Shown: piece after piece, positions 3,001 to 26,690 of the stretch
How positions within the stretch are numbered: the stretch's first letter is position 1
How the letters are laid out: the number at the start of each line of letters is the position of its first letter
Source of the DNA: a virus
Taxonomy: Duplodnaviria > Heunggongvirae > Uroviricota > Caudoviricetes
Length of the DNA stretch: 57,829 bases
IMG/VR virus record: IMGVR_UViG_2822641076_000001
Location: 1 to 57,829 of that record
Reading direction: 5' to 3' (one strand)
Program-made: the position numbers and the translations under genes
Notes under the pieces: generated by a model
What the model was told of the DNA's origin: nothing
The model's input: the letters and a program-made list of their open reading frames with translations, nothing else
Database searches by the model: none

Positions 3001-6000
3001 GCTTTTGCTTTATTAGAACTGATACCTTGCCCTTCTAGTTGTTTTGTTAATTCTTTTGCTTTGTCACTATTCATGCTGAATTTTTTACCACTGTCTACTA
3101 ATCCACCAACATAGTCTTTCAATTCTCTTTGAACACCTCTCGTAGCCTCGGCTTGTTTATCAAAGCCTTTTGAAGCTGTTTGAGATGCGGAGAATGAATT
3201 TCTTAAAACAGGTGGAAGCTTTGTTAAAGCTTGTCCATACGAAGTTGCTTCTTTAGTGACTTTCTCTGTATGTTTCTCTAAATCAAATCCTTTTTTACTC
3301 CAATCAGCAGATGCGTTTTTGGCTTGAATCATTTTTTGAATTAGCTTTTCGTCTTCTGCTGTTAAATCACGAATTGAGTTTGTTTGGTCTTTGTTTTTCT
3401 TTTTAGCTCTATCTCTTTCATTTGTTAGTTTAACTTGTTCTTTTGCTACACCTAAGATAGCTGTACCGCTTTGTTTAAATGCTTCTTTAACTTTTTTCTC
3501 AGATTCGTACAATTTCATGTTAGCTTCGGCAATCTCTAGAGTGTCTTTTTTAACTGTAGCTCCCATTCCCGAACCAATTACTTTTCCTTCTTTTTTGTAA
3601 TCATAATCTTTCTTTTTCTTATTGTAGTCATCTAAGACATCTGAAAGTTTTTCGTTTGATTTCTTTTGCTTTTGTTGCGCTCTTTCTAGAGAGATTTTCT
3701 TTTCTTCTTTGGCAAGGGCTTTTGCAAGTTCTAACTCTTCCTTAACAGCTTCAACACTTTTCAGTCGAGCATTACCCTGTGCATCAATTTCTTTTGTAGC
3801 AGTAGGTAATAATTTGTTGATTTTATTTTGAACTTCTTCTAATTTTTTTGCATCTTTTGGACTCAAAGCTTCTTTTCGACTTCTAGAAAGTAAATCATAA
3901 TCTTCTACAAGGTCTTCTAATTCAGAACCATGATTTCCAATTGCATCACTTGCTTCTTCTACACGTTTGTTGAACTCTTCTTGTTCTTTTTTCATTTTAG
4001 CGAAGTAGTTTATTGTTTTCTCAATAGCGACTCCCAACGCCATAAAAGCAATAGTCGGAAGAATTGCTGTACTCATAAAGCCTACTAGCCCCATGAATCC
4101 TGCTTTCATTAATCCAATACCTTTTGTTGCGATATTCGTTGCCATTGCTACACCGTTGATTTTAGCTGTAGTTGTAGCTAAAGCCATGTTAGCCATGTTC
4201 ATCTTTGCAACATCTAGCATTCCTGCTTTACCGTTCTCTACTTTTGCTTGTTTTACTTTTTGAATCGCATCATGATATTTCATCATCTGCTGTGCGCTTT
4301 GTTCGTAGTATCTATCAAGCTTTTTAGTTGCCTGTGCATTGATTGCTTGTCCTAATTTTGTTTGAGCATCCGCAAGTTGAACAGTTGCCTGTCTTGCTCT
4401 TCCTTGAGTAGCTTCAAGACGTTCCATTCTTGTAGTTGCCTGCTCAATTGCTCTATAGTTGAACCCTGTGAATTTATTATCAAGCTTTGGAATACCATGA
4501 ATAGCTTTTGCCATTCTTCCAAACATACCAACAGCCTTTTCCCCACGTTGAACCAATTGTGAAGTAGCTTGGTCTCCATAGTTAGCTTTCATTTTGTATG
4601 CTACTAAACCTGCACCAACAAGACCTAGTACAGTACCTAATACACCGAAGTTCTGAGCAAGAGCTGATACACCTTTCATCAGACCTTGTGTCAAGTCTAA
4701 AGCCAACATGAATCCACCATTTAAGAATGCATCACCGAATGCTAATGCCATCTCAGATAATGAGTTCTTTAGTCGGTTAATTCGTGCTTCTAAAGATTTT
4801 TGATACTCAGCATTCTCACGCATTGCTGAACCTTGAGAGTTTAATGAGTCATTTGTCGCTTTAACAGCTAAATCCCAGTTATTCATTAAGGCTAAGAAAC
4901 GAGTTAAATGGTTACGTCCTGCTACTTTAACGGCAATATTTTGTCGTTCCATATCAGTCATGTATTTCCATTTACCTGCTAAATCACTAAATACATTCTC
5001 TACTTTACGTGCATCTCCACCTGCTGTACGAATAGAAACACCTACACCTTTCAGTGCTGTCTCTACATCGGGAAGTGTTGTTACACGAGAGTAAATTGTT
5101 TTTAAGGAGTTACCAATTTGTTTACCTGATTCCATCGTTGTCGCACCAATCGCTGTTACGTGTCCAAGTAAACTATCAATATCTACTCCAAACGTCTTAG
5201 CTGTTGCTGACGCTTTCATCATTGCCTCTGATAATTGTTGAGTCGAAATCGAGTTATTGTTATCGACTTCGTTCATTTTATCTACTAGGTCAATAGATTT
5301 TTCTACTTCGAAGTTGTAACCGTTCAGCGTTGCGATTAATGATTTCATCGCATCATCTGCTTTTAAGTCAGATACGTTCGAAGCTATCGTCGCTGTACGA
5401 GCTAATGAAATTTGTTGCTGTTCAGATAATTGGTCATAAGAACGACTAATCTCTGAGATTGTGTTTAATACATCTTTCGCACTGTTACCAAGCTCAGATG
5501 CCATCTTAATACCACCCTCGAACAGAGCGTTAGTATCTACGTCGTCACTAGCAACACGACGTAAGTCTGTCATGGCTTTATCTAATTCTACGATTTCTTT
5601 CGTTAAAGTTTTGATACCTTGAACAGAACCATAGAATAATGTTGTACTAGCAAACCAAACTGGCACACGTTCTAAAGCGATTTTTAACTGCTCTAAAACA
5701 CCTAAGTTTTTGTTTGCATTGTTTCTAAGTTCGCTACCCATACGAGTAAGCTCTCTAGATGCATGGTTTAATACATAAGCAAACTCTTGAACACTCTTTT
5801 TACCATCGTCGATACGAACTTTAAACTTAGACATTTGCTGTCCATCTCGACCGATTTCGTTGCTCATACTAACAATATTAGCTTTAGCTCCGTGCATTGT
5901 TCTTGATAGATTTTGAACGTCTCTCTCGAAGGATTGAACGTTATTTTTAAAACTACCAAAATTAATCTTATCTCCAACGTTGATTGTTTCTCCTGCTTTT

Positions 6001-7701: not shown

Positions 7702-8676
7702 TTAGAAAATATCGTCTAAATCTTCGCTGTCGTCACGTACAACATAGATTTCTGTCGTCTCACTACTAGCGTGACCTAATAGCTTCTGAGCCGATTTAAT
7801 ATCTTTTCCATCTACTGCAACGATATGTGTTGCTCGTGTAGAACGGATTAAATGGGGATGAACACGAACTCCTAAAATATCTGAGAACAATGCGCTACAC
7901 CAGTGATTGAACATGTTAGCTGAAATTTGTCTGTAGCCTTCTTTGCTACGTGCTACGAATAAGTAAGGACAATCATCTTCTCCTCTTAATTCAAGCCAAC
8001 GTTTCATAGCTGTCATAGCTCGTTCATCGAATGTGAATTTACGAACTTTACCTTCTTTCCCTCTACCTTTCGCACGAATAGAATGCGTAATGTAGAACGG
8101 TTTATCATTTCCTTCTTTGTCTTTTGCTTTCGAATAATCAACTACTTCTTTTAGTAATTGACGACTCTCCTCTCTTCGACAACCTGTCGCATATGTATAA
8201 AGTAAATACGCAACTTCTTGATATCTTTCACGCTTCTCTAATTCTTTAACTAGAGTTTCAAACTGTTCTTTTGTTAATGGGACTTTCTCATGTTTCTTTA
8301 CATTTGGTGGGTTGGGAATGTTTTTGTTGTAGATATTGCGGAATGTTTCATATTCATCAAGGTAGTAGATTTCTAGATATCCACATAGACTCGATACAGC
8401 AGAACGTTTGAATTTAATTGCAGAAGATGATAATCCTTCTTGAATTAAGTAGTTCTGATATCTAAGTGCATCCCTTGGTTTCAATTTGTGTAGTGGTTTG
8501 TTCATACAATTGTTTTTCACCCACATGAAGAATTGCATCAATGCAGAGCGATATTGTTTTAATGTTTGCGGAGATAAATGACCTTGAGTCAAGAACTCCT
8601 CTGTAAGTTGTCTATTAAATGGGTCGATTTCATTCTCCCATACGTCTTTGGTTACTTCGGGCAATCTTTTAGCCAC
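7702..8676 (-). CDS. Tyrosine recombinase (XerC/D family) in the tail module, SPbeta YomM-like position
   Basis: N-terminal SAM-like domain plus a full catalytic set: TGCR, KGRGK, HPHLIR (HxxR), LLGH, TEIY. Confidence 0.9.
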   Translation of the reverse strand: MAKRLPEVTKDVWENEIDPFNRQLTEEFLTQGHLSPQTLKQYRSALMQFFMWVKNNCMNKPLHKLKPRDALRYQNYLIQEGLSSSAIKFKRSAVSSLCGYLEIYYLDEYETFRNIYNKNIPNPPNVKKHEKVPLTKEQFETLVKELEKRERYQEVAYLLYTYATGCRREESRQLLKEVVDYSKAKDKEGNDKPFYITHSIRAKGRGKEGKVRKFTFDERAMTAMKRWLELRGEDDCPYLFVARSKEGYRQISANMFNHWCSALFSDILGVRVHPHLIRSTRATHIVAVDGKDIKSAQKLLGHASSETTEIYVVRDDSEDLDDIF

Positions 8677-21281: not shown

Positions 21282-22544
21282 CTAATTAATTTGTAGGTTC
21301 ACTTCAATTGGAATAATCTTTCCATCACCACGTACAACAATAACTCCTTGAGATGCATCAGACATCCCTTTGAAGTTTCGTGCGTAGTCATTGCGTCCCA
21401 TTAAGCTACCAAAGTAAATCTCTTTCTTAGAGAAGTTACGGTCAATAACTTTGTGACTGTGGAAGTGTCCCATTACAAGAGCTGTTAATTCTACGTTATC
21501 CATAGATTCATGCGATGCGATTTTGTTTGCATCTGCTTGCTTCTCTTTGTCTCCGTGAACGAATTTGATGTAAGTGTCTTTCCCGAATTTCTTCAAGATT
21601 GAATAATTGTAATCTGTATTATCAATTAAACTTAATCGTGGAATATTCGCCATCTCAACAAACGTCTTAATGCTCTCATAAATAACTGCTGTCACATTAT
21701 CACCTGTGATTACACTGTCTTTGTGTGACTGCATTCTGTCGTGATTACCACTTGTCAAACCAAGCTCTACATTGCAGTAGGCTGTTAGAGATACTACGAA
21801 ATCAATTACTAAACGTGTTGCTTTATTGATTTGTTCCGCCATATTGAACTCACATTCAAATGGTTGGTTTGTAGGTCTCATTGAGATTTGCTCGATGATA
21901 TCACCATTATGTATTACCGTTACGTCATTAACATTGAATGTCTTAACGTAGTAAAGAACTTCTTCTTTCATCTTCTCTAAGCGTTTCTTAGCGATTTCGA
22001 AGTTGTAGTCATTTCCATAAACACCCTCGACAACTGCTCCCACATGCCAATCTTGTAAGCAAACTACTAATTCGTTTTCACGTCTCTCTAATTTACCTTT
22101 GTAAGCATATTCGGGAACTTCAATAACACAGTTATCTAACATCGCATCTCGAACTTCTTCTGCAATTGTATGGAAGTCAGCTAAATCACGTTTAGCTTTA
22201 TTCAAATCACGAAGAACAATTTGGTTCTCACGTTTTTCTTGATACATTTCACCAACCATATTGCGAATAGATTCTAATTTAGATGTAGAAACCATATCAG
22301 CATGTTTCTTAACAGGTACTAATTTACCAATCTTCTTCTGATAGTCTTTTACAAGACAACGATATGCCTCGTTTACATCTGAGTTTTCGAATCCTTCTTG
22401 TTTCATAAGTTCACGATGTTTTGACCAAACAACACGTCTACTAGGACTCATTTCTTGTAATTGAAGTTTAATTTCCACTGCTGTTTCTAAGTGTTCCTGT
22501 GATACTTCAACTACTTCGTCCTTTTTGTTCGTGTAGCGTCTCAT
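21282..22544 (-). CDS. Calcineurin-like metallophosphoesterase (YonJ-like)
   Basis: Motifs DWHVG, GDIIE, GNHDR, HGD, GHFH. Start moved to MRRYTNK after GAGGCGG. Confidence 0.85.
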   Translation of the reverse strand: MRRYTNKKDEVVEVSQEHLETAVEIKLQLQEMSPSRRVVWSKHRELMKQEGFENSDVNEAYRCLVKDYQKKIGKLVPVKKHADMVSTSKLESIRNMVGEMYQEKRENQIVLRDLNKAKRDLADFHTIAEEVRDAMLDNCVIEVPEYAYKGKLERRENELVVCLQDWHVGAVVEGVYGNDYNFEIAKKRLEKMKEEVLYYVKTFNVNDVTVIHNGDIIEQISMRPTNQPFECEFNMAEQINKATRLVIDFVVSLTAYCNVELGLTSGNHDRMQSHKDSVITGDNVTAVIYESIKTFVEMANIPRLSLIDNTDYNYSILKKFGKDTYIKFVHGDKEKQADANKIASHESMDNVELTALVMGHFHSHKVIDRNFSKKEIYFGSLMGRNDYARNFKGMSDASQGVIVVRGDGKIIPIEVNLQIN

Positions 22545-22545
22545 C

Positions 22546-22749
22546 TTAGTATTCCGCCTCATCATTTGGCTCATTTAAAACCTTGTCCAATTTAATAGTG
22601 AATGAAATCTCAGCTCCATTAAATTTAGCTAGCTCACTATCAATATGGATATCTCCAAGGCAAACACCTTTTTTATCATATTCTGTGATAATTCGATTCT
22701 CAGCATCTAGTAAACCTTTTACACTAATCGTGTGTGTCTCTTTTGCCAT
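22546..22749 (-). CDS. yonK: YonK-family small protein
   Basis: MAKETHTISVKGLLD...FNGAEISFTIK resembles SPbeta YonK as recalled, and the gene is syntenic with the YonJ-like gene. Confidence 0.7.
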   Translation of the reverse strand: MAKETHTISVKGLLDAENRIITEYDKKGVCLGDIHIDSELAKFNGAEISFTIKLDKVLNEPNDEAEY

Positions 22750-22815
22750 GTCTACATTTCCCCTTTTTCTCATAATCCATTACGGTAAATGAAATTTTAC
22801 CGACCTATATACAAC

Positions 22816-22840
22816 AAAAAAGACACCTATCTCGGTGTCG
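22816..22840 (-). terminator. Terminator closing the tRNA/ncRNA operon
   Basis: Minus strand GACACC-GAGATA-GGTGTC followed by TTTTTT. Confidence 0.7.
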
Positions 22841-22916
22841 TATAATACAGAAAATATATTATGTTATTGTATATAATATTATATAATGTATTCGTACATT
22901 TAAATTCTAAATAAGA

Positions 22917-22962
22917 GTGCAGGCTAGCGGAGTCGAACCACTATTAAAACCATAACCTACAT
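22917..22962 (-). ncRNA. tRNA-like minihelix (acceptor stem plus T-arm only)
   Basis: TGTAGGT/GCCTGCA stem enclosing TAGTGG-TTCGACT-CCGCTA. No D or anticodon arm. Confidence 0.45.
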
Positions 22963-22965
22963 ATT

Positions 22966-23040
22966 TGGCACGCCCTCTAGGACTCGAACCTAGAATAGAA
23001 GTTTTGGAGACTTCTGTGTTACCAATTACACTAAAGGCGC
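22966..23040 (-). tRNA. tRNA-Trp(CCA)
   Basis: Cloverleaf, anticodon arm GAAGT-CTCCAAA-ACTTC, encoded CCA. Confidence 0.93.
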
Positions 23041-23100
23041 ATGACACCTTGCCGTTTATATTTAGTAGGAACGGCTAGGGTAGAAACCTACATACATTTG

Positions 23101-23515
23101 AAAAACTCACACAAGAAGTGCAGGAAACTCATGTGAGGTTGCACTTTTTCATATTTAGTTGTCTATAATGTTCGCATAAACCATCGTCAACGAACTCTAT
23201 CGCTCCCACACTTGCCTTCAATATGAGAAACAGAGCGACTTTCCAATGTCTACCGTTGGTGGGTTGGTATCCTTGTCCCACATCTCTTAGTAATTAAGCT
23301 TTTTTTAAGACTCGAACCGTTAATACGCTAGCATGTATTGTCACGTATTCAAGCGTGATAGCTACCTCTTCTATCCTCAACGGTGACTGCGATGATAGCA
23401 AGCAGATAAGACAATCTCTTATCGGGATGGATAATGGTATCTTTAAATCGTCCCCCATTCGGGAATGATGCAGTTGCCTTTGCACCTGACTAATTTTTTA
23501 GGCTTAGTCCACCTT
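23101..23515 (-). ncRNA. Unassigned structured RNA between tRNA-Ser and tRNA-Trp
   Basis: Many hairpins (GACTAA/TTAGTC, GATAAGA/TCTTATC, TCACG/CGTGA, AAGTGCA/TGCACTT) and no credible CDS. Confidence 0.4.
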
Positions 23516-23518
23516 TAA

Positions 23519-23608
23519 TGGAGGGAGAGAGGCTCGAACTCTCGCTACCTTTAAATAGGTACTAACAGTTTAGCAAACTGTCCTCTTCACCAACTTGAGT
23601 ACCCCTCC
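23519..23608 (-). tRNA. tRNA-Ser(GCT)
   Basis: Class II cloverleaf with a long variable arm, ACAGT-TTGCTAA-ACTGT, no encoded CCA. Confidence 0.9.
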
Positions 23609-23640
23609 AAGATAAAATCCAATTCCGTAAAAACAGAACT

Positions 23641-24458
23641 GGTCTTGCGTAGGCTGAGATTAAACCTCGCATTGAGTGCCTTTAGAAAGATTATATCTTC
23701 CTCTCTTATCCACGTAATCCTCTTTTGGAGCAATTACGTATCACTCACAACCGCACGTTTTAATTAGTCGCTGTGCATTCTGCGACCTGTTACACTACTA
23801 CTCAATAGCTCCTATTCTGTCAACGTTGCCACGCTATTAATCTCTGCTAAGAGAACCATGCAATTCACTATCAAACAATCAGAGTTTTGCGAACTCATCA
23901 TGCTCCTCATTCAACTTTCGTTGTGGGGATTTAGGTTGCCTTCGTAATGTAAGGAGACAGGCTTTCGCTTGTATGAATTTTAATTAGTCATATATTAATC
24001 ATCTTTTTAGATTACCATATCTAATACCTGTATTAGTCTCTGTGACCGAAGACGTGCTGTCTCAGTGGCTTCGTAATCTTTTGGATTACAAAATACCACA
24101 CGCCTTCATGTTCTTTCGCCAACTAGCTACTCAAACCGTAATCAAAGTTACTTTGGCTTTCGACCATTTCGCTTTCACTACTGACTGTCGCCCTTGCTTG
24201 TTAGACTCGGACTGTACAATCTCTCGATTCACTCTCGTTTCTTCATTACTTTAGCGTGGAGTGTATTGGTGCTAACCAATACTGCTACTACATCGTTGAC
24301 CTCGTAGCGTTTTCTCCGTAATTTCACGAAACTATCACCATCATCACAATGATGACTTAGGAGTGTCGATTGTGCTTGGATTGACCGTTTACACGGTGGC
24401 AACTTGTCACATTGCCTTTACGCAACTCACGTTACGCTATCAGAGCCAAGCCTCGAAG
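23641..24458 (-). ncRNA. Large structured ncRNA, ROOL-like (alternatively GOLLD)
   Basis: ~800 nt without a credible CDS inside a phage tRNA array. Dense hairpins include two with CAAAAG loops. The 3' segment AAAGGC...TAATCTCAGCCT resembles ROOL as recalled (unverified). Confidence 0.6.
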
Positions 24459-24464
24459 TAAAGA

Positions 24465-24537
24465 TGCACCTTGTAGGGTTCGAACCTACATATAACGGCT
24501 GTTTAGGCGGTCTGCTTTCACTTTAAGCTAAAGATGC
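24465..24537 (-). pseudogene. Degenerate tRNA (mismatched anticodon stem, loop CTAAACA)
   Basis: Intact acceptor (GCATCTT/AAGGTGC), D and T arms. The anticodon arm is irregular. Confidence 0.65.
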
Positions 24538-24552
24538 ATATTGAAGGGAGGG

Positions 24553-24623
24553 AGGAGTTTATCGGACTCGAACCGATTACGCCTTGACTACGCCAAGTGT
24601 TTTGCCTGTTAAACTAAAACTCC
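24553..24623 (-). pseudogene. Degenerate tRNA with a 5-nt anticodon loop (CGTAG)
   Basis: GGAGTTT/AAACTCC acceptor, intact D and T arms, anticodon arm CTTGG-CGTAG-TCAAG. Confidence 0.65.
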
Positions 24624-24626
24624 ATA

Positions 24627-24711
24627 TGGTGGCAGGGGTAGGACTCGAACCTACGAACTCGATTGAGGGGAGATTTACAGTCTCCTGTCATTGCCACTAG
24701 ACTACCCTGCC
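24627..24711 (-). tRNA. tRNA-Tyr(GTA)
   Basis: GGAGA-CTGTAAA-TCTCC, long variable arm, encoded CCA. Confidence 0.95.
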
Positions 24712-26368: not shown

Positions 26369-26399
26369 ACTTGTAATCTCTATGAGATTTAATTGTGAA

Positions 26400-26690
26400 T
26401 TAACGTACTGAATCTTTTAAAGCTTGAGAAGCCTTGAACTTAGGTACATGCTTTTCAGCAACTTGTACTTCTTCACCAGTTTTCGGGTTACGTGCTGTAC
26501 CTGCTTCTTTGAATTGACGTGTGAACGTTCCTAAACCTGCAACTTTAACTGCACCGTGTTCTTTCATACCTTCTACAATAGCACCTGTTACTGTGTCTAC
26601 CACACGACGAGCGTCAGCTTGATTTAATTTAAGACCCATTTCCTCACGTAAAGTTCCTTGTACCTCTTTAGCTAATAATTGTGTATTCAT
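26400..26690 (-). CDS. hup: HU/IHF-family DNA-binding protein (YonN-like)
   Basis: VKVAGLGTF...ARNPKTGEEVQV.EKHVPKFKASQALKD signature. Start moved to MNTQLL. Confidence 0.95.
   Translation of the reverse strand: MNTQLLAKEVQGTLREEMGLKLNQADARRVVDTVTGAIVEGMKEHGAVKVAGLGTFTRQFKEAGTARNPKTGEEVQVAEKHVPKFKASQALKDSVR

Follow-up and report, generated by a model that had tools for sequence, protein, structure and literature searches.

GOLLD RNAs are among the largest non-coding RNAs of bacteria and phages and form protein-free cages that are larger than the ribosome. The ideas published so far about their biological role are the encapsulation or storage of tRNAs and an interaction with the ribosome.

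The family is characterized by a conserved 3' domain, a variable 5' domain and a location near phage tRNAs, and its cages consist of RNA only, are built as 12- and 14-mers and enclose the linker that follows the first hairpin of the 3' domain and is named J13/15 in the literature (PMC12286853, PMC12990946). In the solved GOLLDs, the 5' domain caps the cage and fixes its copy number (PMC12286853, PMC12990946). The env-38 GOLLD, with 833 nt of which residues 1-420 form the 5' region and residues 421-833 the 3' region, assembles into a 14-mer cage (PDB 9MEE; PMC12286853). The 700-nt GOLLD of Streptococcus agalactiae forms a 12-mer, and its 3' domain alone forms mainly a 10-mer (PDB 9L0R, 9LMF; PMC12990946). 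ROOL is a further large structured RNA that is found beside phage tRNAs (PMC5737381).

The locus described here is a gene-free stretch of approximately 800 bases in the window, by which we mean the whole stretch of DNA that was analyzed (57,829 nucleotides); the window is the opening 57.8 kb of a virus record of 153,621 bp with an estimated completeness of 94%. We consider this stretch, with a probability of roughly 0.85, to be a true GOLLD gene, read from the minus strand, with the two-domain build of the family and a structure of about 807 nt. Both the presence of GOLLD in phage tRNA arrays and the variability of 5' domains within the family are already known, and the sole unusual point of this GOLLD is that the type of its front half is found in just one other phage.

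Assignment to the GOLLD family

A scan of the whole window with Rfam 15 placed the GOLLD model (RF02032, gathering score 150 bits) at 24108-23651 on the minus strand with 204.4 bits and an E-value of 2.6e-56, the match covering model positions 1-416 of 416 and thus being full-length. It is the only strong non-tRNA Rfam match in the window, it was obtained again when 22800-24700 was searched at a relaxed threshold (E up to 10), and the whole 153.6-kb phage record holds one GOLLD. By a hand count on the printed Rfam alignment, 89 of the 98 GOLLD consensus pairs are standard pairs, with none of the consensus helices of the 3' domain deleted, and the first hairpin, long-range helix and terminal stems of that domain also appear in an MFE fold computed without constraints. 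The near-invariant 3' block GUGGAUAAG..GGAA..AUAAUC..UAAUCUCA, which is common to all verified GOLLDs, was found at 23714-23655 and aligned with 15 other GOLLDs.

A sequence-only reading of the same region had proposed a ROOL/GOLLD-like giant non-coding RNA beside tRNAs, with a 3' motif resembling that of ROOL and a length that might point to an expanded ROOL variant. The GOLLD part of this proposal is borne out by the score of 204.4 bits against a cut-off of 150, whereas the ROOL part is not. ROOL shares with the present RNA the genomic habit of a large structured RNA beside phage tRNAs (PMC5737381), as well as the formation of RNA-only cages, but searches with its model (RF03087) were negative at E<=10 in 22800-24700, at the gathering score in the window and across the entire 153.6-kb phage record, while the GOLLD model reaches 204 bits in the same place. 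The supposed ROOL-like motif belongs to GOLLD. ROOL also differs in its unrelated sequence and fold, in its size of approximately 580 nt and in its intertwined 5' and 3' regions, the window RNA having at least 807 nt and two separable domains. A length of about 800 nt is normal for GOLLD, as the 833 nt of env-38 illustrate, and therefore does not indicate an expanded ROOL. The comparison with both Rfam models, which had been put forward as the way to check the proposal, thus settles the identity, with GOLLD above its cut-off over the full model and ROOL giving nothing: the stretch is GOLLD and not ROOL, and the chance that it is a ROOL or an expanded variant of it is negligible.

The four hairpins on which the sequence-only reading was built are all present, as checked directly. 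In the minus-strand RNA, a perfect stem of 8 bp capped by a loop of 4 nt occupies 24282-24263, a second perfect stem, of 6 bp, occupies 24354-24339, 24089-24073 reads GUAAUC-CAAAA-GAUUAC, and 23739-23712 is a longer stem with CCAAAAG at its top; the latter two, which had been singled out for their common CAAAAG loop, both belong to the Rfam GOLLD consensus structure. The impression of densely packed hairpins is likewise confirmed by a control with 300 mononucleotide shuffles, in that 24462-23610 contains 8 perfect hairpins of >=6 bp as compared to 1.4 +/- 1.3 in the shuffled sequences, none of which (0/300) reached 8. The span originally suggested, 23641-24458, is nearly the same as that of the delimited RNA, 23651-24462; no strand had been given for it, and the RNA lies on the minus strand, as do all 16 tRNAs of the array.

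Extent and parts of the RNA

The Rfam GOLLD model covers the conserved 3' domain alone. Since this domain begins at 24108 and the upstream tRNA-like gene ends at 24463, 354 nt (24462-24109) are left for the 5' domain. The total length comes to approximately 807-853 nt, with a structure of about 807 nt (24457-23651) lying inside an 853-nt gap between two tRNAs. The parts of the locus are the following:

24463-24538, minus strand: tRNA-like gene, called tRNA-Phe(AAA), whose 3' end abuts the GOLLD 5' end (ARAGORN; Rfam tRNA, 46.9 bits)
24109-24462, minus strand: GOLLD 5' domain, 354 nt (fold z-scores, covariance models, pair counts against L177)
24439-24382, minus strand: part of the 5' domain, three-hairpin array with the loops GUGA, GUGACAA and GUAA
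24369-24224, minus strand: part of the 5' domain, multi-branch sub-domain containing the two perfect hairpins of the sequence-only reading
24222-24137, minus strand: part of the 5' domain, a hairpin bearing the conserved GUCCGAGU..UAAC..GCAAGGGC motif, and a stem with a GNRA-like cap
23651-24108, minus strand: conserved 3' domain, 458 nt (RF02032)
24047-24108, minus strand: first hairpin of the 3' domain, model positions 1-62, apical loop CAAAA(G) (Rfam alignment)
23954-24046, minus strand: single-stranded linker, about 93 nt (Rfam alignment)
23651-23953, minus strand: core of the 3' domain, model positions ~156-416 (Rfam alignment)
23619-23642, minus strand: hairpin and U-rich tail directly after the GOLLD 3' end (consensus scan)
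23518-23609, minus strand: tRNA-Ser(GCU), the downstream neighbor (ARAGORN, Rfam)
22822-22839, minus strand: intrinsic-terminator-like site downstream of tRNA-Trp, the last tRNA, consisting of a GC-rich stem of 6 bp and then TTTTTT

The first hairpin of the 3' domain (24108-24047) contains zero non-canonical pairs in the Rfam alignment. It is followed by the linker, which consists of an AU-rich variable part (24046 to about 23975, where 19 nt are inserted as compared to the model) and then of the conserved segment AAGCGAAAGCCUGUCUC, and in which (24046-23954) neither ARAGORN nor Rfam finds a tRNA. The core of the domain is formed by a long-range helix around a multi-stem region, followed by the terminal stems that carry the near-invariant GUGGAUAAG..UAAUCUCA block.

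Beyond the 3' end of GOLLD, the hairpin at 23642-23619 may act as a weak terminator or as a 3'-protecting hairpin, and the 5' end of tRNA-Ser(GCU) is a probable RNase P site, which would define how far the GOLLD precursor can extend on its 3' side. The terminator-like site at 22839-22822 is the better one of the two and is likely to be where the tRNA/GOLLD transcription unit ends. The frequency of promoter-like sites in the region does not exceed the chance expectation, and none of them stands out.

The 5' domain and its counterpart in a second viral contig

The 5' domain folds better than its shuffled versions on the minus strand (z -2.07) and not on the plus strand (z +0.40). Searches with blastn and nhmmer among the GOLLD loci, of which about 100 are lake-type and which were gathered by two conserved-motif scans of IMG/VR, revealed no sequence relative of this domain besides its own clade and a weak match in one further locus, L177. 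Similarly, when a profile HMM built on 49 lake-type GOLLDs of full length was aligned to the window, the alignment began only at the 3' domain.

L177 (IMGVR_UViG_3300026484_000001) is a 154,998-bp viral contig that has its own GOLLD 3' domain (224 bits). Three covariance models, R1, R2 and R3, were built from the window clade alone. R2, which represents the multi-branch sub-domain, matches L177 at 7916-8060 with 46 bits (E 7e-10), R1 matches at 8062-8146 with 30.5 bits (E 1.6e-4), and the top match of R3, the three-hairpin model, is at the expected place (7845-7902, 9.6 bits). The three matches are collinear and lie directly upstream of the L177 GOLLD 3' domain. No match to R1 and R2 was found in the GOLLD loci L042, L077, L158, L191 and L192 or in several lake-type loci.

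Base pairing in the two 5' domains was compared in two counts: 22 of 49 pairs are changed on both sides in the first, at 98.5% pairing, and 9 of 26 pairs in the second, at 98.1% pairing. Taken together, pairing is retained at 98% over 75 predicted pairs, 31 of which differ on both sides, with the reservation that the comparison comprises in effect two lineages and that the alignments were fitted to the model structure, which makes the counts lean towards that structure. In slid controls, where the partners were moved by 1-3 columns, between 0 and 3 pairs are changed on both sides. Given the size of this effect and the E-values of the covariance models, a chance origin of the conserved pairing appears unlikely as judged from these sequence comparisons. 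The outermost helices of the 5' domain (RNA positions 1-25 and 327-348) receive no support from L177. Alignment of the window and L177 by MAFFT followed by RNAalifold gave a muddled consensus, and an alignment guided by the covariance models was needed.

Among the conserved elements is a 23-nt hairpin-top motif, GTCCGAGT(N1-2)TAACNNGCAAGGGC, which in IMG/VR is confined to the window clade and L177/L216. The conserved loops of the 5' domain include several GNRA tetraloops (GUGA or GUAA, GUAA, CGAAA or GCAA). In the solved cages, elements of this kind mediate tertiary contacts and contacts between subunits.

The GOLLD of L177 thus shares with that of the window a 5' domain of the same type, in which about 300 nt are collinear and compensatory changes are numerous, a similar Rfam score (224 vs 204) and a hairpin after the 3' end, which in L177 is AU-rich and located at the equivalent place. 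It differs in that sequence identity is only about 50%, in that its linker holds a weak tRNA-like fold (33 bits, 8241-8309) where the window linker has none, and in that it is preceded by 1.6 kb of gene-free DNA with repeated promoter-like cassettes, so its own 5' end may be further out. Within this upstream DNA, at 6860-7640 of L177, four copies of the cassette (…TTTACGGTATAATATAGG…) were observed, each apparently placed before a short structured or tRNA-like unit. The neighboring genes of L177, which encode GroEL, a GGDEF protein and an amidase, are unlike those of the window and show no similarity to them. The presence of the same 5' architecture directly before the 3' domain in L177, despite these dissimilar neighbors, indicates that the two halves travel together, and from these sequences we conclude that the 5' and 3' halves constitute one unit that has been moved between phages.

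Evidence on transcription and on the unity of the two domains

The stretch, or a sequence nearly identical to it, was found in 20 public runs from 14 studies, which include isolates, metagenomes from rhizosphere, soil and gut, and five RNA runs, four of them labelled as soil metatranscriptomes. Two soil metatranscriptomes contain contigs that match the window exactly over 24187-24445 and 24083-24301, the second of which crosses the border between the 5' and 3' domains, and in the same two data sets the protein-coding flanks at 22400-22947 and 26373-26500 have no coverage. These contigs lend weak support to transcription of the stretch as one RNA, being few and of low depth, carrying no strand or end information, and coming from RNA libraries, which can contain DNA. 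In the raw RNA-seq runs X22 and X24, which bear the same species label and come from strains without the phage, GOLLD is uncovered and 1-3 stray reads fall on tRNA genes.

These observations bear on the reading that only 24108-23651 is GOLLD and that the 354 nt upstream are a separate element, such as a small RNA, decayed tRNAs or a spacer. Such a reading draws on the fact that the Rfam GOLLD model leaves precisely these 354 nt uncovered, on the lack of a sequence relative among about 100 lake-type GOLLD loci, and on a weak promoter-like site inside the domain (24369-24340). However, the same architecture stands directly upstream of the 3' domain in L177 amid dissimilar neighbors, an exact contig from an RNA library crosses the domain border, no other Rfam family matches the 354-nt part, and variability of the 5' domain has been described for the family (PMC12286853, PMC12990946). 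A separate upstream element is therefore improbable, and the two-domain GOLLD RNA is the reading that we retain.

Variation within the clade

The window clade comprises at least 4 haplotypes that are 96-99.9% identical and come from isolates as well as from soil and rhizosphere data; a protein-guided search for syntenic relatives in IMG/VR returned the same clade only, and blastn of the whole stretch and of its 3' 130 nt against 50,697 phage records gave no usable match. Within the clade, 7 of the 8 substitutions located in predicted stems keep the pairing, and one hairpin shows a compensatory double change from C-G to U-A. The least conserved section relative to the HuA3-9-type relative is the AU-rich part of the linker, with an identity of 90% as compared to 96-97% elsewhere and with a 4-nt indel. 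Such a fast-changing linker fits the variable, inward-facing linker that was described for GOLLD (PMC12286853, PMC12990946).

The pattern of variation also speaks to whether the stretch is a decaying, non-functional GOLLD remnant in the tRNA array. Its Rfam score of 204 is well below the 297-335 of lake-type GOLLDs, and more distant relatives of the phage lack GOLLD, as would suit a remnant. Against this, the full model is covered without the loss of a helix, substitutions both within the clade and relative to L177 keep the pairing, conservation amounts to 96-99.9% over at least 4 haplotypes, and other verified GOLLDs score equally low (Mycobacterium 197, L191 181), making decay a very improbable explanation.

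The same holds, to a still greater degree, for the proposition that the stretch encodes one or more small proteins. Two ORFs could be named in its favor, one of 57 aa (24402-24229, minus strand, TTG start) and one of 70 aa (24042-24254, plus strand, GTG start), but all ORFs are short (<=70 aa) and have non-ATG starts, those in the homologous stretch of L177 are not collinear with those of the window, the substitutions are compensatory in pairs rather than codon-like, and the match to a structured-RNA model is full-length. A protein-coding function can practically be set aside in favor of the structured GOLLD RNA.

Comparison with other GOLLDs

The lake/marine-type GOLLDs, represented by env-38, share with the window RNA a full-length 3' domain with its CAAAAG-loop hairpin, linker, long-range helix and invariant block, and further share the size of about 0.8 kb, the location in a phage tRNA array and the two-domain layout. 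In contrast, their 5' domain has no detectable sequence similarity to that of the window, and the lake-type HMM and the window covariance models do not detect each other's sequences. When the canonical P1-P12 layout of the lake type was looked for in the 5' domain of the window, one hairpin motif was found in common, the hairpin top CCGAG..UAAC..GGG, which is a possible shared element and a lead only, since the motif scan elsewhere was at chance level. That scan, with CCGAGU(N1-3)UAAC(NN)GCAAGG, returned 25 further, unrelated viral contigs (L217-L241), several of them with complementary flanks; none of these loci is near a GOLLD 3' motif or has HMM similarity. By a hand estimate, 25 is approximately the number expected by chance.

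The GOLLDs of S. agalactiae and Mycobacterium resemble that of the window in their Gram-positive hosts and in a reduced or altered 5' domain, the likeness to S. agalactiae being drawn from its description only. The Mycobacterium GOLLD (L077, 197 bits) also resides in a tRNA array and differs by a tRNA in its linker, where the window GOLLD has none. Embedded linker tRNAs were seen at 545-613 of L077 and at 5866-5937 of the viral contig L042, and such an insertion has been described in the literature.

A pattern scan of genome contigs gave 38 matches, of which 17 were checked together with the viral loci L042 and L059; among these 19 loci, only L077 and L042 are GOLLDs according to Rfam. An early impression that there are many GOLLDs with unique 5' regions was dropped, the other loci checked being chance matches. 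A scan of metagenomes for GOLLDs with a long terminal hairpin gave five loci, namely four lake-type GOLLDs and one marginal match to the 3' end. No publication linking GOLLD RNA with B. cereus was found, which is weak evidence of novelty.

The phage, its tRNA array and neighboring genes

According to ARAGORN, the GOLLD gene lies inside an array of 16 tRNAs, all on the minus strand. Neighboring genes encode an exonuclease, the large terminase, the portal protein and a RecD/Dda-like helicase, and relatives carry the YonK, YonG, YonD and YonB families, from which it follows that the phage is SPbeta-like. Some members of the exonuclease cluster bear names from B. cereus HuA3-9 and B. wiedmannii; their contigs, found in several assemblies, are 152-154 kb long. 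These contigs of about 153 kb suggest a separate replicon, and we regard the element as a phage or plasmid-prophage of the Bacillus cereus group.

Two distant relatives fetched via the exonuclease gene, L112 (exonuclease 64% identical) and L113, keep the tRNA array in the same slot, and GOLLD was not found in either of them; GOLLD is therefore accessory cargo. Both of these GOLLD-free relatives have a DUF2828/DUF7788 gene (L112:6195-7637, L113:4229-5659) between the tRNA array and the yonK/exonuclease genes, which in L112 lies exactly where the phage of the window has GOLLD, tRNA-Ser and a skipping-rope RNA.

The skipping-rope RNA (RF02924) is located at 23251-23385 on the minus strand, between tRNA-Ser and tRNA-Trp and just downstream of GOLLD, with 47.1 bits against a cut-off of 36.7. 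A piece of it (approximately 23259-23371) is exactly missing in the 96%-identical HuA3-9-type relatives L111 and L114, and its presence or absence is thus polymorphic; a contig from a soil metatranscriptome matches 23277-23471, in the skipping-rope area. On the other side of GOLLD, the gene called tRNA-Phe at 24463-24538 shows the anticodon AAA; inspection by eye reveals a C-C mismatch in its anticodon stem, its Rfam score is low, and it may be an aberrant or decoy tRNA. It is followed at higher coordinates by two adjacent tRNA-Tyr(GUA) genes of unlike build on the minus strand, 24551-24623 and 24627-24711, of which one has 73 nt and lacks the long extra arm that the other, with 85 nt, possesses.

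Proposed maturation, assembly and role

In the scheme that we propose, GOLLD would be transcribed together with the tRNAs of the array and would be freed by the processing of tRNA ends, that is, by 3' trimming of the upstream tRNA-like gene and an RNase P cut at tRNA-Ser, with the 3' hairpin serving as protection. We regard this course of events as somewhat better than an even bet.

With more confidence, and by homology with the env-38 and S. agalactiae GOLLDs, whose 5' domains differ from that of the window, we expect that copies of the RNA probably assemble without protein into a closed dihedral cage, whose rings would be built from the 3' domains and whose caps from the 5' domains, with the linker pointing inward. 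The cap domain is unlike both solved ones, and the copy number (10-14) is therefore not predictable here. One tentative extension, which we hold to be rather unlikely, is that the 5' domain of the window and L177 represents a third, previously undescribed GOLLD cap architecture, giving a cage whose copy number or geometry would be unlike those of the solved 12-mer and 14-mer.

As to function, our best guess is that the RNA would have a job in lytic growth that is tied to the supply of phage tRNAs and to translation.

Implications

In kind, this GOLLD adds little, as GOLLD in phage tRNA arrays is well known. Its value lies in the uncommon 5' domain with covariation between two phages, which points to the two halves moving as a unit and offers a natural variant for the question of how the cap sets the size of the cage. 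The host is a cultivable lysogen of the Bacillus cereus group with near-identical phages in several isolates, and the distant relatives that carry DUF2828/DUF7788 in the GOLLD slot provide material for knock-out and comparison experiments. Should the 5' domain indeed be a third type of cap, a culturable and tractable prophage of the B. cereus group, together with its GOLLD-free relatives, would make a practical system in which to study the function of the cage.
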